A stretch of DNA of 64,000 nt from Pseudomonadota bacterium (GCA_021845865.1 JAJZVC010000009.1:8218-72217), one strand, 5' to 3'. Positions 2 to 4,157 are shown, numbered from the stretch's first letter. Notes: generated by a model not told the origin, from the sequence alone. Program-made: numbers and translations.

Positions 2-613
2 TGGCAGTTGGCCCTGGGGTCGCTGCCGCGCCATTTCCGCCGCGCCCTGGGCGATTTTCCGTCCCATGGCGGTTATTTGCGCGCCGACCCGGCCAGGGCC
101 GCCGCCTGGGGAGAACGGCTGGGAAAGGCGGGAAAACTGCGCGTGGGCCTGAACTGGGCGGGCAACCCGGCATTCCGCCACGACCGCTGGCGCTCGGCCA
201 GCCTGGCGGACTTCGCGCCCTTGGGCGGCGTTCCTCATGTGGAGTGGTTCAACCTGCATCAGGGCGTGCGCAAGAGCGAATTGGCAATCGCGCCATTCCC
301 CCTCCACGACTACGCCGGCGAGTGGCGTGATTTGGATGACACCGCGGCGTTCATGGCGAATCTGGACCTGGTGATTTCCACCTGCACCGTGATTCCCCAC
401 CTGGCGGGGGCCCTTGGGAAACCGGCATGGGTTCTGGTCCATGGTCTGCCTTATTGGGCCTGGGGAGGCGAGGGGAAAGCCACGCCCTGGTACCCTTCTG
501 TCAGGGTGTTTCGTCAGCGGGGTTGGGGGGACTGGCCGGCGGTGATGGCGGAAGTGGCCGCTGCCCTGGGAGAGTTGGCCGTGGGGGGGGCGGAACTGGC
601 TCCTAAGGCATGA
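2..613 (+). CDS. 3'-terminal part of a glycosyltransferase family 9 (heptosyltransferase-like) domain protein; the 5' end lies outside the window
   Basis: Open frame from the window edge to the stop at 611-613. The translation (LNWAGNPAFRHDRWRS...DLVISTCTVIPHLAGALGKPAWVLV...PWYPSVRVFRQ) is colinear with the C-terminal half of the TPR-GT9 protein at 23130-24599 ([16 protein letters not shown]...[25 protein letters not shown]...[11 protein letters not shown]). Confidence 0.6.
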   Translation, partial: WQLALGSLPRHFRRALGDFPSHGGYLRADPARAAAWGERLGKAGKLRVGLNWAGNPAFRHDRWRSASLADFAPLGGVPHVEWFNLHQGVRKSELAIAPFPLHDYAGEWRDLDDTAAFMANLDLVISTCTVIPHLAGALGKPAWVLVHGLPYWAWGGEGKATPWYPSVRVFRQRGWGDWPAVMAEVAAALGELAVGGAELAPKA

Positions 614-1727
614 AGAGTTTCAGGGCCTCCGAGACCTGGTCTACGTGTTCCAGAGGCATGGCAGGGTAGAGGGGTAAGGACAGGGTTTCTTCGCCCATCT
701 GCTCTGCTGACGGAAAACGTCCCTTCGGATAAGCGAGCGTGGTCTGAAAATGGCTGAGCAGATGGATGGCACGGTAATTCACAGTGGTTCCGATGCCCAG
801 GGACTGGAGATGGGCCACAAGGCTGTCGCGGTGTTCCGGGCTGACCCGGATGGGGAAGAGGTGGCGGGCATGCCGGCTATTGGGGCGTGTGGCGGGAAGG
901 GTGATACCAGGAATACCAGCCAATTGCTTACGATAACGCTCAGCGAGTTTTTCCCGCTTTGTCCGATTGATTTCCAGCCGTTGCATCTGGGGCAGGAGCA
1001 TGGCGGCCTGGATGTTGTCCATGTTGTATTTCCATCCAAGCATGGTCATGTCCCAGTGTTGATAGCCTTCCCGGTAACGATCGGAGGCGGTCTTGGTCAT
1101 GCCGTGCAGGCGAAGCTTCTTGAGGGTTTCGTGCAGGGCGCTGTCCCGGTACGCTAAAGCGCCGCCTTCCCCACAGGTCATGTTCTTGGTGGCGAAGAAG
1201 GAAAAGCAGGCGGCGTCGCCGAGTTGTCCCGGCTTCACGCCATCCCGTTCGCCTTCTATACAGTGAGCCGCATCCTCGATGAGCGCCAGGCCATGGCGGT
1301 CAGCGATGGCTCGCAGACGGCGCATGTCGCACATCAGGCCATAGAGGTGCACTGCCAGGATGGCGCGGGTGCGGGGCGTGATGGCGGCCTCAACCTGTTC
1401 GGCATCCAAGTTGCCGCTGTCCGGTTCCACGTCCACGAACACGGGGCGCGCGCCGGCTTCCTGAATGGCGGCTGCCGTGGCGATGAACGTCATGGGAGTG
1501 GTGATGACCTCGTCGCCGGGACCGATTCCCAATGCCAGCAGCACCATGTGCAGCGCCCCGGTGCAACTGGTTGTGCCCAGGGCATGAGGAACCCCCAGAT
1601 AGGCGGCGAATTCGTTCTCAAAGCGGGCCACCCATTCCCCGGTGGTCAGGATCGGGCTTTTGAATACTTCGGCAATGTTGGCAAGCTCGGCCTCGCCCAG
1701 GTCGTGCATGAAGAAAGGAACACGCAT
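603..1727 (-). CDS. DegT/DnrJ/EryC1/StrS-family PLP-dependent sugar aminotransferase
   Basis: ORF 603-1958 trimmed to ATG 1727-1725 (MRVPFFMHDLGEAEL...), which overlaps the stop of the upstream dehydratase by 1 nt (TGATG). Family hallmarks are GTTSCTGALHMVLLALGIGPGDEVITTPMTF and the PLP-lysine region SFFATKNMTCGEGGA. Confidence 0.85.
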   Translation of the reverse strand: MRVPFFMHDLGEAELANIAEVFKSPILTTGEWVARFENEFAAYLGVPHALGTTSCTGALHMVLLALGIGPGDEVITTPMTFIATAAAIQEAGARPVFVDVEPDSGNLDAEQVEAAITPRTRAILAVHLYGLMCDMRRLRAIADRHGLALIEDAAHCIEGERDGVKPGQLGDAACFSFFATKNMTCGEGGALAYRDSALHETLKKLRLHGMTKTASDRYREGYQHWDMTMLGWKYNMDNIQAAMLLPQMQRLEINRTKREKLAERYRKQLAGIPGITLPATRPNSRHARHLFPIRVSPEHRDSLVAHLQSLGIGTTVNYRAIHLLSHFQTTLAYPKGRFPSAEQMGEETLSLPLYPAMPLEHVDQVSEALKLFMP

Positions 1728-2755
1728 CAGTGCATTTCCCGCTTGCCCGAGGCGGTGATGATGGGGATGTGGCGCATCCAGCGCTGGTTTTCCCACCAAT
1801 CCGGGTTGTCGCGGTACCAGGCCACGGTTTTCGCCAGGCCATCGGCGAATGACGTTGCTGGCGTCCAATCCAGCAGGGCCGCGGCCTTGCTGGAATCCGC
1901 CGTGTGGCGGAAAACCTGGCCGGGGCGTTCGCCCACGGTCTGGATTTCGCTTTGGCAATGGGGGATGAGTTCCCGTATGGCGTGAGCGATTTCCAAAACG
2001 CTCATGTCCACGCCGCTGCCCAGGTTGATGACTTCGCCGCAGTATTTATCAATATCGCCGTGCAGCAGGCGGTCCAGCGCCTCGCAATGGTCCTGGACGA
2101 AGAGGAAATCCCGCCGGGCGGAGCCGTCGCCATGGACGGTAAGCGGCTCGCCGAGCAGGCAACTGGTGATGAAGCGAGGGATGACCTTTTCCAGGTGCTG
2201 GCGGGGGCCGTAATTGTTGAACGGCCTCACGATGACGGTCGGTATGCGGTAGGTCTGCCAATAGGAATAGACCAGCCGATCGGCGCCGCATTTCGCGGCG
2301 GCGTAGGGACTCATGGGATTCAGGGGGTGGCTCTCGTCCATGACGGGGGAAAGGGCGGAGCCGTACACCTCGGAGGTGGAGATGTGAATGAACAGCTGGA
2401 TGCGGTCCCGGTAGCGCAGCACGGAATTGGCGACCACCTGGGTGCCGAGGACATCGGTTTCGACGAACTGCCGGTTGTCGAAAATGGAACGGGTGACGTG
2501 GGATTCCGCCGCGAAGTGGACCACCATGTCGCTGCGGCTCACCAGCGAATCGACAATATCCGCATTGAGCACGTTGCCGTGCCAGAACTCGAAACGATTC
2601 GAGTCGAAGCCGCCTTCCGGAAGATTATGCACGCTGCCGGCATAGGTGAGGGCGTCAAGGACGATCAGCCGGTAATCGGGATATTTATCGTACAGGTGAT
2701 GAACGAAGTTGCTGCCAATGAATCCGGCGCCTCCGGTAATCAAGACGGTCTTCAC
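1727..2755 (-). CDS. NDP-hexose 4,6-dehydratase (RmlB-like extended SDR)
   Basis: 342-aa ORF with MKTVLITGGAGFIGSNF, HFAAESHVTRSI, STSEVYG, SPYAAAKCGADRL (YxxxK) and NNYGPRQHLEKVIP. The nucleotide carrier cannot be determined from sequence. Confidence 0.85.
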   Translation of the reverse strand: MKTVLITGGAGFIGSNFVHHLYDKYPDYRLIVLDALTYAGSVHNLPEGGFDSNRFEFWHGNVLNADIVDSLVSRSDMVVHFAAESHVTRSIFDNRQFVETDVLGTQVVANSVLRYRDRIQLFIHISTSEVYGSALSPVMDESHPLNPMSPYAAAKCGADRLVYSYWQTYRIPTVIVRPFNNYGPRQHLEKVIPRFITSCLLGEPLTVHGDGSARRDFLFVQDHCEALDRLLHGDIDKYCGEVINLGSGVDMSVLEIAHAIRELIPHCQSEIQTVGERPGQVFRHTADSSKAAALLDWTPATSFADGLAKTVAWYRDNPDWWENQRWMRHIPIITASGKREMH

Positions 2756-3462: not shown

Positions 3463-3464
3463 GA

Positions 3465-4157
3465 TTACTTTACTGTTGCAGCGGATGTTTTGCGTGCTTC
3501 CGAGGAATGTTCTCGAAAGAATAATTCCCACGGCTGCCGGTCGGTTATCTTCTGAGGCTGGCAGTCTTGCCGCACGTAGTGGGTTGGCGGGATGTCTTTT
3601 ACAACGATGCTTCCCATGGCCACGATGCTCCAGTCGCCTACAGTAATGTCTGAACGAATGGCTGTATTTATGCCGAACATGCAACCGGCGCCTATGCGCG
3701 TATACCCGCCGACACTGACGCCTGGCGCAAAGAAGCAGGTGGCGCCGACAATACAGTCGTGGCTGATGGAGACGCCACTCCACAGAAGCGTTCCTTTGCC
3801 CAAGGAGACGTTCGGGCCGATGAAGGAGTGCGCGTTCACAAAGCAATTTCCAGCGATGGTGGCGGTTTTGGATATGGCTGCCTGCGGATGGTAAACATTA
3901 GCCAGGTTGAATCCATGGCTTGTAATTATCTCCATCCATTTTGCACGGGTCGTCGGTGTGCCGACGGCAACGAAGAACTCCGCTGAAGGCATGTCCTTGA
4001 ATGCCGCGAAGGGGCCAAGGACGGGGTGTCCCGATACCGATTGGCCAGCCAGTTCTCGCCGGTCATCGAGAAATGCCACTTCATATCCCGAAAGGGAAGC
4101 GGCTTCGGCTACTTCCCTGCCTAGGCTTTCCGCACCAAGAATTATCAGTTTTGTCAT
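3465..4157 (-). CDS. NeuD/PglD-type left-handed beta-helix sugar acetyltransferase (copy 1)
   Basis: 230-aa ORF with an N-terminal KLIILGAESLGREV Rossmann-like part and hexapeptide repeats (GKGTLLWSGVSISHDCIVGATCFFAPGVSVGGYTRIGAGCMFGINTAI). Confidence 0.8.
   Translation of the reverse strand: MTKLIILGAESLGREVAEAASLSGYEVAFLDDRRELAGQSVSGHPVLGPFAAFKDMPSAEFFVAVGTPTTRAKWMEIITSHGFNLANVYHPQAAISKTATIAGNCFVNAHSFIGPNVSLGKGTLLWSGVSISHDCIVGATCFFAPGVSVGGYTRIGAGCMFGINTAIRSDITVGDWSIVAMGSIVVKDIPPTHYVRQDCQPQKITDRQPWELFFREHSSEARKTSAATVK

Follow-up and report, generated by a model that had tools for sequence, protein, structure and literature searches.

A conserved WbqC-containing gene cassette, predicted to make a tailored 4-amino-4,6-dideoxyhexose, within a bacterial flagellin glycosylation island

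Introduction

Four consecutive genes at the beginning of a 64,000-nt stretch of DNA from a Pseudomonadota bacterium (GCA_021845865.1, JAJZVC010000009.1:8218-72217; this whole stretch is called the window, and all coordinates are window positions) encode a left-handed beta-helix (LbH) acetyltransferase, a WbqC family protein, an RmlB-like extended short-chain dehydrogenase/reductase (SDR) and a DegT aminotransferase. They raise the question of which sugar is made, from which activated precursor, and what WbqC, a protein with no assigned function, contributes to it. An earlier note on this DNA had read the four genes as a module for an N-acylated 4-amino-4,6-dideoxyhexose, built from dTDP-glucose, linked to flagellin glycans and lacking its own RmlA-like sugar-1-phosphate nucleotidyltransferase. 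The amino-sugar pathway and the flagellin setting of that interpretation stand; the unit is larger, dTDP-glucose is not established as the substrate, and the missing RmlA is normal. The genes very probably belong to a conserved cassette that makes a tailored 4-amino-4,6-dideoxyhexose, in which WbqC, the SDR and DegT are accompanied by an AsnB-type amidotransferase and by one or two radical SAM/SPASM enzymes.

Organization of the four-gene module

Open reading frame (ORF) listing and translation place the four genes on the minus strand, where they fill positions 603-4157 exactly and are consecutive and abutting or overlapping, as had been claimed. As read from the sequence at the junctions, the stop codon of the acetyltransferase gene is followed after a 2-nt gap by the TTG start of WbqC, the WbqC stop and SDR start overlap in GTGA, and the SDR stop and DegT start overlap in TGATG; the four genes are therefore translationally coupled. 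They form the 3' end of a run of ten co-directional minus-strand genes that extends from 12761 to 603 (Table 1).

Pfam scans of most of the larger ORFs found no PF00483-type sugar-1-phosphate nucleotidyltransferase in the window, and GalU-like and RfbF-like queries likewise returned none (tblastn against the whole window, phmmer against all ORFs), in agreement with the earlier observation. The sole nucleotidyltransferase of the window is a CMP-type cytidylyltransferase that lies within a pseudaminic acid gene set.

A cassette conserved across phyla

A locus scan with the window WbqC as single query and one genome per species recovered 80 species-level loci in which WbqC is 47-72% identical to the query. 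These loci (cited below by L numbers, which are also used for other loci examined) span Proteobacteria, Acidobacteriota, Nitrospirota, Planctomycetota, Chloroflexota and Melainabacteria, and include one Thermoplasmata archaeon. Partner counts, taken over the 48 of the 80 loci that have full 10-kb flanks (Table 1), identify a conserved core of WbqC, SDR and DegT together with AsnB and radical SAM/SPASM enzyme 2 (rSAM2), often joined by radical SAM/SPASM enzyme 1 (rSAM1). The unit thus exceeds the four genes and takes in the AsnB-type amidotransferase as well as one or both radical SAM/SPASM enzymes.

The order rSAM-rSAM-AsnB-(GNAT or M20 peptidase)-WbqC-SDR(342 aa)-DegT is found in a Rhodocyclaceae metagenome-assembled genome (MAG), in Methylogaea oryzae (seven genes, AP019782, about 530.5-542.4 kb) and in an Omnitrophota MAG. 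In the Rhodocyclaceae (L001) and Methylogaea (L003) loci every component is 63-76% identical to its window ortholog, with values of 71-73% for AsnB, 73-76% for rSAM2 and 63-64% for rSAM1; cassette orthologs of DegT show 58-74% identity. Elsewhere the cassette has neighbors typical of O-antigen or exopolysaccharide loci, namely Wzt, Wzy, Polysacc_synt and glycosyltransferase (GT) genes, and no flagellin gene occurs within 10 kb in any of the 80 loci. No published description of a WbqC-SDR-DegT-AsnB-rSAM cassette was found in the literature searched.

Two further proteins recur in cassettes of particular lineages. Pyrinomonadaceae-type cassettes (L011, L023, L024, L040, L057 and other acidobacterial loci) encode a multi-pass membrane protein of ~500 aa with no Pfam match, which sits between rSAM2/GNAT and AsnB in 20 loci, and a DCC1-like small thiol-disulfide oxidoreductase recurs in the same type of cassette (5 loci).

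Table 1. Features of the window, in order of position, and occurrence of the cassette partners among the 48 related loci with full 10-kb flanks.
Feature	Coordinates	Strand	Length (aa)	Family matches and remarks	Related loci (of 48)
Partial ORF	1-613	+		No family match; convergent with the DegT gene (ends 613)	
DegT/DnrJ/EryC1 PLP-dependent sugar aminotransferase	603-1727	-	374	PF01041, E 3e-125	35 (at least 50% identity)
RmlB-like extended SDR	1727-2755	-	342	TIGR01181, 326.8 bits	45 (next to WbqC)
WbqC family protein	2752-3462	-	236	PF08889, E 3e-61; TTG start	
NeuD/PglD/VioB-type LbH sugar N-acetyltransferase	3465-4157	-	230	TIGR03570	1
NodU/CmcH-type carbamoyltransferase	4175-5878	-	567	Carbam_trans_N + Carbam_trans_C, E 1e-49 to 1e-62	0
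Glutamine-dependent AsnB-type amidotransferase	5911-7785	-	624	Asn_synthase + GATase_7	38
rSAM2	7785-8840	-	351	Radical_SAM + SPASM, CNAKCPHC	35
rSAM1	8831-9832	-	333	Radical_SAM + SPASM, CNQKCIHC	19
TPR + GT1-like glycosyltransferase	9825-11816	-	663	Glyco_trans_1_4 + TPR	
SAM-dependent methyltransferase	11823-12761	-	312	Methyltransf_23 + Methyltransf_11; first gene of the operon	
Sigma-70-like site	12811-12782	-		Consensus match	
TPR-containing protein	12909-14867	+			
Second WbqC paralog	14857-15579	+		GTG start; heads module 14857-20744	
LbH acetyltransferase of second module	16210-16872				
PhyH-type dioxygenase of second module	17865-18698				
Second DegT	19500-20744				
TPR-containing protein	20785-23037	-			
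TPR-containing glycosyltransferase	23130-24599	+			
Pseudaminic acid gene set	24607-30196	+			
CMP-type cytidylyltransferase	26756-27457			Within the pseudaminic acid gene set	
Formyl_trans_N protein	28497-29147				
SAM methyltransferase + GT2 protein	31471-36234	+	1587	Large stretches with no family match	
Flagellin	36359-37879				
GNAT				Partner in related loci	30
M20 peptidase				Partner in related loci	8

WbqC: translation start, family and fold

WbqC matches PF08889 at 207.5 bits (gathering cutoff 21.3) over profile positions 32-217 when a partial query is used, and the full-length protein aligns with its homologs from residue 10. Membership in PF08889 carries no functional information. 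In the literature searched, WbqC and PF08889 appear as annotation mentions with no assigned function, and no functional study was found, in keeping with the earlier note. The family-invariant residues Q15 and P20, together with the first beta-strand of the confident structural model, precede the first ATG, and translation must therefore begin at the TTG. The public annotation of this WbqC (L087, GCA_027438095.1, DAIAMV010000049.1, 1347-1976) comprises 209 aa without the N-terminal strand, Q15 and P20, and a TTG located 84 nt upstream brings all three back.

Homologs number 5316 at E<=1e-10, the nearest being 65-75% identical and found across phyla, an identity between lineages that is unusually high for a glycan-tailoring enzyme. 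The family as a whole has 13,451 representatives (50% identity clusters, E<=1e-3). An AlphaFold2 model built on a 65-sequence alignment shows an alpha/beta fold with a pLDDT of 96.7 and a pTM of 0.91. Neither phmmer nor profile searches of PDB sequences gave a match to WbqC, and Foldseek comparison of the model with the PDB gave no neighbor at E<=1e-3. The only recurring sub-threshold resemblances in the PDB and BFVD searches are to HUP-class proteins, namely TagD-type cytidylyltransferases and TyrRS; the PDB matches have E values of at least 8e-3 and TM scores of 0.2-0.36 on the query, with 2b7l at a probability of 0.72 and a TM score of 0.55 on the target. No homology or fold match links WbqC to known aminoacyl transferases (Fem/GNAT type, cyclodipeptide synthases, MshC). 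The alignment shows conserved polar residues (D32, D38, R50, H91, Y99, Y204 and D219) and a conserved basic stretch with the consensus WRNRNRIK, and sequence and alignment contain no HxGH or KMSKS-type motif and no evident nucleotide-binding motif.

The BFVD search also recovered the WbqC fold in five unnamed proteins of ~240 aa from viruses (A0A6J4EHY4, A0A6B9SW24, A0A411BJX6, A0A6B9STS8 and A0A1B0Z0N5; E 3e-17 to 4e-5, TM 0.54-0.81). Some viruses therefore encode WbqC-like enzymes.

WbqC and amine-generating enzymes in other genomes

The E. coli O121 O-antigen carries N-acetylglycine, and its 4-amino-4,6-dideoxyglucose (Qui4N) is cited as the bearer of the N-acetylglycyl group, as the earlier note had stated. 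WbqC may be tied to this substituent, a lead given by the Pfam description of the family. An amine-generating enzyme, DegT aminotransferase or PIG-L/LmbE deacetylase, is present in every WbqC neighborhood examined, and WbqC-GNAT fusion proteins occur in both domain orders; both observations support the previously suggested connection of WbqC with N-acylation. The compound aminoacyl-plus-acetyl group proposed for the sugar would be one form that such acylation could take. WbqC and DegT form an adjacent pair in Bacteroides thetaiotaomicron, and in L093 WbqC lies within a GT4/PIG-L set. In Dickeya zeae WH1, WbqC and DegT genes lie between fliA and fliC (PMC9650423), and a Streptomyces operon has the order proSx (a ProRS paralog)-GT4-WbqC-lmbE-tRNAProX-murG (PMC10404621).

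Other architectures include tandem WbqC-WbqC fusions of ~490 aa (P0121, P0193) and a WbqC protein with a 250-aa C-terminal extension that has no family match (P0176), encoded in a GT4/Bac_transf/MBOAT/DegT/PIG-L locus. An independent flagellin island (L089, 1-16708) carries a 39%-identical WbqC abutted by a carbamoyltransferase, in the order flagellin, TPR-GT2, SDR, NTP-transferase, DegT, carbamoyltransferase, WbqC, GNAT, PIG-L, rSAM, methyltransferase, rSAM, NeuB, CMP-transferase. Pairing of a carbamoyltransferase and radical SAM enzymes with WbqC thus recurs in a pathway of nonulosonic-acid type.

The RmlB-like SDR and the starting sugar

The SDR has the extended-SDR scaffold, with a TGGAGFIGS NAD site and an intact YxxxK motif (YAAAK). 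Its best PDB matches are dTDP-glucose 4,6-dehydratases, including RmlB and DesIV (E about 8e-73 to 1e-72); it scores ~250 bits (249) on RmlB structures versus 128 bits on UDP-xylose synthases (UXS), and it retains the C-terminal WYxxNxxWW signature of RmlB. The protein nevertheless misses the RmlB equivalog cutoff of NCBIfam TIGR01181 (326.8 versus 365.1 bits), a model on which the L091 ortholog scores 300.4 bits. The Thr-Asp-Glu triad of RmlB is not conserved, with STSEVYG in place of STDEVYG, and further differences are HVTRS for HVDRS, HGDG for YGDG and RPGQVFRH for RxGHDxRY. S[TS]SEVYG is present in 66 of the 69 cassette SDR orthologs and RPGQVxRH in most; HVTRS occurs in 35 of the 69, and HGDG in the window protein alone. 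The Asp of the RmlB triad reportedly acts as general acid, according to the work of Frey and Naismith. GDP-mannose 4,6-dehydratase (GMD) works with Thr-Ser-Glu (TSE), so that dehydratase activity of the SDR remains likely while its identity as RmlB is not established. The protein is predicted to be a nucleoside diphosphate (NDP)-hexose 4,6-dehydratase and falls in a clade apart from canonical RmlB, one that current annotation would mislabel as dTDP-glucose 4,6-dehydratase.

When the ORFs of the 80 loci were clustered without supervision, a GalU-like nucleotidyltransferase emerged in 9 loci, where its gene abuts WbqC on the immediate upstream side. The best NCBIfam model for these proteins is GalU (111-144 bits, compared with 41-72 bits for RmlA models), all scores being below cutoff. 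In L091, a cassette-type SDR lies beside a separate NTP-transferase/SDR/dTDP-sugar-isomerase set, a coexistence that argues against simple redundancy of the cassette SDR with RmlB. Together, the GalU-like character of the linked nucleotidyltransferases and the signatures of the SDR clade make a UDP-hexose, with glucose and GlcNAc as candidate sugars, the more probable starting point, and the dTDP-glucose start assumed earlier is not established. Supply of a UDP-hexose from housekeeping metabolism would explain why the cassette is normally found without a nucleotidyltransferase of its own. The notion that the lack of RmlA is an anomaly of this locus was rejected, absence being the rule across cassette loci.

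The aminotransferase and the acyltransferase slot

The DegT protein matches PF01041 over residues 10-369 and carries the lysine for pyridoxal phosphate (PLP) in the motif FFATKNMTCGEGG, at the position where a dehydrase would have His, which places it among the aminotransferases of the family; with the intact YxxxK of the SDR, this lysine supports the amino-sugar pathway. Its scores lie below the cutoffs of the aminotransferase equivalogs compared: PseC (331 versus 423.5), ArnB (310 versus 631), WecE (PRK11706, 247 versus 375), LegC (219 versus 420) and DesI (193 versus 650). The best PDB match is ArnB (8sng, E 6e-73), and the enzyme is predicted to act at C4 of an NDP-4-keto-6-deoxyhexose.

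The LbH protein passes TIGR03570 (NeuD/PglB/VioB; 181.9 bits versus a cutoff of 160.8), contains PglD_N (E 9e-10) and Hexapep (E 1e-13) domains, and matches PglB (4m98), VioB (7txp, E 5e-21), PerB (4ea7) and PglD (3bss) in the PDB. It was rightly described as part of the module here, but the slot beside WbqC is variable: it is filled interchangeably by GNAT, LbH, formyltransferase, Antibiotic_NAT or M20 proteins, with GNAT the usual occupant and LbH seen in a single one of the 48 related loci. A constant WbqC beside a varying acyltransferase fits a constant linker with a variable cap.

A proposed pathway and its rivals

Family assignments and gene context lead us to infer the following route, in which the nucleotide carrier, the regiochemistry, what WbqC does, the sequence of reactions and the compounds on which AsnB and the radical SAM enzymes act are all conjectural. 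The SDR would convert a housekeeping nucleotide sugar, more likely a UDP-hexose, to an NDP-4-keto-6-deoxyhexose, which DegT would aminate at C4. WbqC may then attach an amino acid or other carboxylate to the C4 amine, with an aminoacyl-tRNA or an ATP-activated acid as donor, and the neighboring N-acetyltransferase (LbH here, GNAT elsewhere and often fused to WbqC) would cap the newly introduced alpha-amine. AsnB could amidate a remaining free carboxylate, for example one in the side chain if the substituent is Asp or Glu, and the radical SAM/SPASM enzymes might further modify the sugar ring. In the window, the carbamoyltransferase and the methyltransferase would add decorations and the TPR-glycosyltransferase would deliver the sugar to flagellin. 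This seven-step scheme, including aminoacylation by WbqC, is put forward tentatively as a whole, its chances falling somewhat short of even, and every step beyond DegT is conditional.

Several observations weigh against the scheme. The carboxylate to be amidated by AsnB is hypothetical. The LbH family normally acetylates the 4-amine of the sugar directly, which would leave WbqC without its proposed role. WbqC is tied more tightly to the SDR (45/48 loci) than to any acyltransferase (30/48), an association that would fit a step on the keto sugar as well. A HUP resemblance that stays below threshold gives structural support to neither ATP nor tRNA use; a single tRNA gene (tRNA-Thr) occurs in the 80 cassette loci, and no aminoacyl-tRNA synthetase (aaRS) paralog appears among the recurrent ORF clusters examined there. 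The GalU-like proteins that point to a UDP-sugar are divergent (111-144 bits versus a cutoff of 327) and present in only about 12% of loci. A more far-reaching version of the scheme is less likely than not: that WbqC, whose fold lacks any solved relative, is the first of a new class of enzymes that aminoacylate sugar amines, and that the cassette makes a UDP-linked sugar not previously described, a 4-amino-4,6-dideoxyhexose with an N-acetyl-aminoacyl-amide and a radical-SAM ring modification, distributed over at least 7 phyla and some viruses and used on both flagella and surface polysaccharides.

The tight association with the SDR is central to the best-surviving alternative, in which WbqC is a cofactor-independent epimerase or isomerase that acts on the NDP-4-keto-6-deoxyhexose between SDR and DegT, and the acyltransferase acetylates or formylates the amine directly. 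Coupling of the two genes through GTGA, a set of conserved residues (the seven polar positions listed above) that resembles an acid/base site in a protein with no evident nucleotide-binding motif, and the direct acetylation of NDP-4-amino sugars by the LbH family all agree with such a function. It is unlikely, however, given that the GT4-WbqC-LmbE operon of Streptomyces is reported with a deacetylase only and no 4-keto-sugar enzyme alongside, that WbqC belongs to a GT4/PIG-L set in L093, and that its recurrent fusions are with GNATs rather than with SDRs or aminotransferases. The O121 sugar is moreover gluco-configured Qui4N, for which no epimerase is needed.

Less probable again is a plain dTDP-viosamine to dTDP-Qui4NAc route of the RmlB/VioA/VioB type, with rmlA elsewhere in the genome and with WbqC, AsnB and the radical SAM enzymes serving other sugars. 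Flagellin glycan loci are known to contain modules of this kind, dTDP-glucose 4,6-dehydratases give the SDR its best matches in both PDB and NCBIfam, and the LbH protein matches VioB. Against this, the SDR scores under the RmlB cutoff and the RmlB Asp is missing throughout its clade, the linked nucleotidyltransferases are GalU-like, and a VioB-like LbH partner is absent from 47 of the 48 related loci. In addition, WbqC, SDR, DegT, AsnB and rSAM2 travel together between phyla with identities of 40-76%, a pattern that speaks for a single pathway.

It is improbable that WbqC is itself a HUP-fold, nucleotidyltransferase-like enzyme that acts on a sugar-1-phosphate and supplies the missing activation step. 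The fold resemblances that suggest it, confined to cytidylyltransferases (2b7l) and TyrRS catalytic domains, are all non-significant, and WbqC has no HxGH or KMSKS-type motif. Such a role would account for the lack of a PF00483-type gene in most cassette loci and for the basic WRNRNRIK consensus, and GlmU provides a precedent for fusion of a nucleotidyltransferase to an acetyltransferase, but it would be redundant in the 9 loci with a GalU-like gene beside WbqC and in L089, which has its own NTP-transferase.

Least probable of all is a uronate pathway in which the SDR, like ArnA and UXS, is a C4 oxidase/decarboxylase with a UDP-uronic acid as substrate, DegT is ArnB-like and AsnB amidates the uronate. 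STSEVYG is the motif of UXS and ArnA, ArnB is the best PDB match of DegT, AsnB homologs amidate uronic acids in O-antigen pathways and the closest solved relative of rSAM2 is the glucuronate decarboxylase BlsE. The SDR nevertheless favors RmlB structures over UXS by a score difference that makes the idea unlikely (249 versus 128 bits), it keeps the RmlB C-terminal signature, and TSE also occurs in GMD-type 4,6-dehydratases. AsnB, moreover, would lose its own target carboxylate if the SDR carried out an oxidative decarboxylation.

Upstream genes and the flagellin glycosylation island

AsnB retains an N-terminal MCGICG, with the Cys2 glutaminase nucleophile, and the SGGLDSS PP-loop; among PDB entries it is matched best by TsnB9 (7ylz) and AsnB (1ct9). 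For rSAM2, the structures closest in sequence belong to BlsE, BtrN and DesII, all of which act on sugars (E 8e-9 to 4e-5). The carbamoyltransferase probably carbamoylates the sugar and is an insertion particular to the window locus. The TPR-glycosyltransferase encoded in the operon is a candidate for the transfer of the sugar onto flagellin; homologs with 31-33% identity lie beside the cassette in L058, L068 and L082, with a PseI-like gene also present in L068 and L082. The sole minus-strand sigma-70-like site in positions 1-13200 lies just upstream of the methyltransferase gene; it is a consensus match of a kind whose total count is not above chance.

The operon is followed by ~24 kb that lead up to the flagellin gene, so that the island measures ~36 kb; FliD, FliS and a FliK-like gene lie downstream of flagellin. 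The host is probably a betaproteobacterium of the family Sulfuricellaceae, since a protein from a Sulfuricellaceae MAG falls into one 90%-identity cluster with the GlnD encoded in the window. The whole is contiguous with flagellin and flagellar genes and contains candidate flagellin glycosyltransferases, features that identify it as a flagellin glycosylation island, in which glycosylation itself is predicted, and that bear out the previously proposed link to flagellin glycans. Four TPR-containing proteins with GT1-like, GT9-like or methyltransferase domains, two of which are TPR-glycosyltransferases (Table 1), are candidate flagellin-directed transferases. A 1587-aa protein with SAM methyltransferase and GT2 domains is encoded directly upstream of flagellin.

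A second WbqC paralog, 38% identical to the first, heads a separate plus-strand module in which it is followed by a methyltransferase, an LbH acetyltransferase, another methyltransferase, a PhyH-type dioxygenase, an ORF with no assignment and a second DegT. This module has no dehydratase of its own, and the island therefore probably makes two different WbqC-dependent amino sugars. The pseudaminic acid (Pse) set comprises PseB-like, PseC-like, CMP-type cytidylyltransferase and NeuB/PseI genes, with a 348-aa ORF lacking a Pfam match in the position of PseG. A Formyl_trans_N protein stands where PseH would be expected, which hints at an N-formyl Pse variant.

Relation to characterized sugar pathways

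The combination of SDR, DegT and N-acetyltransferase is shared with the viosamine pathways (RmlB/VioA/VioB, leading to dTDP-Qui4NAc in Shigella dysenteriae 7, E. coli O7 and, with VioB 7txp, Acinetobacter). The UDP-viosamine route of Mimivirus (R141/L136/L142) likewise uses a 4,6-dehydratase, a DegT 4-aminotransferase and an N-acetyltransferase, and the window SDR matches 6vlo, which we take to be Mimivirus R141. In contrast to the viosamine enzymes, the SDR clade has TSE rather than Thr-Asp-Glu (TDE) and scores below the RmlB cutoff, DegT fits PseC and ArnB models better than those of WecE or VioA type, and the cassette has WbqC, AsnB and a pair of radical SAM enzymes in addition, with an acetyltransferase that is usually a GNAT. 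PglF/PglE/PglD of di-N-acetylbacillosamine synthesis and LegB/LegC/LegH of the legionaminic acid precursor also pair a dehydratase and an aminotransferase with a PglD/NeuD-type LbH, and PglD_N is present here. The LegB and LegC scores (197 and 219 bits) are, however, far below the cutoffs (475 and 420), and the operon has no NeuB or NDP-sugar hydrolase, whereas the window holds a separate and complete Pse set.

Desosamine biosynthesis (DesIV, DesI and the radical SAM deaminase DesII) resembles the cassette in bringing an SDR, a DegT and a radical SAM enzyme to bear on one NDP-4-amino-4,6-dideoxyhexose; DesIV is a top PDB match of the SDR, and DesII is among the few of rSAM2. Unlike DesII, which is matched only at E 4e-5, the window radical SAM enzymes carry SPASM domains. 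A second aminotransferase and an N,N-dimethyltransferase are missing from the core cassette, and WbqC and AsnB are without counterpart in desosamine synthesis. The proposed function of WbqC is closest in logic to mycothiol biosynthesis, in which MshA (GT4) acts, MshB (an LmbE deacetylase) exposes an amine, MshC (a CysRS-like ATP-dependent ligase) adds cysteine and MshD (a GNAT) acetylates. WbqC similarly occurs in the company of GT4 and PIG-L/LmbE genes and is either fused to GNATs or encoded next to them, a resemblance that may extend to mechanism by analogy, but it is unrelated in sequence to MshC and aaRS, and the amine in the cassette would come from a transaminase acting on a nucleotide sugar.

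As in the islands of Pseudomonas syringae and P. aeruginosa, whose glycans contain N-acyl viosamine, and in Dickeya zeae WH1, amino-sugar genes and TPR-containing glycosyltransferases adjoin flagellin in the window. No acyl-carrier or ketosynthase-type genes for a hydroxybutyryl group were seen in the window island, which has two WbqC modules, two radical SAM enzymes, AsnB and the carbamoyltransferase. The dehydratase-aminotransferase-acetyltransferase logic is thus known, whereas the viosamine, bacillosamine and legionaminic acid precursor pathways contain nothing equivalent to WbqC, AsnB or the two radical SAM/SPASM enzymes.

Significance

Amino-acid-derived N-acyl sugars are common in O-antigens and flagellin glycans, examples being the N-acetylglycyl, alanyl and aspartyl derivatives of Qui4N and Qui3N. 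To our knowledge, as far as a search under the WbqC name extends, no enzyme that installs the amino acid has been identified. The WbqC family, with about 13,000 clusters at 50% identity and an orphan fold, sits where such an enzyme would be expected. The conserved cassette is a compact and portable gene set whose cultured bearers include Methylogaea, Methylocapsa and Magnetospirillum, which makes the question directly testable. Its breadth, the orphan fold of WbqC and a plausible aminoacyl link together offer a lead on how amino-acid substituents may be placed on bacterial amino sugars.

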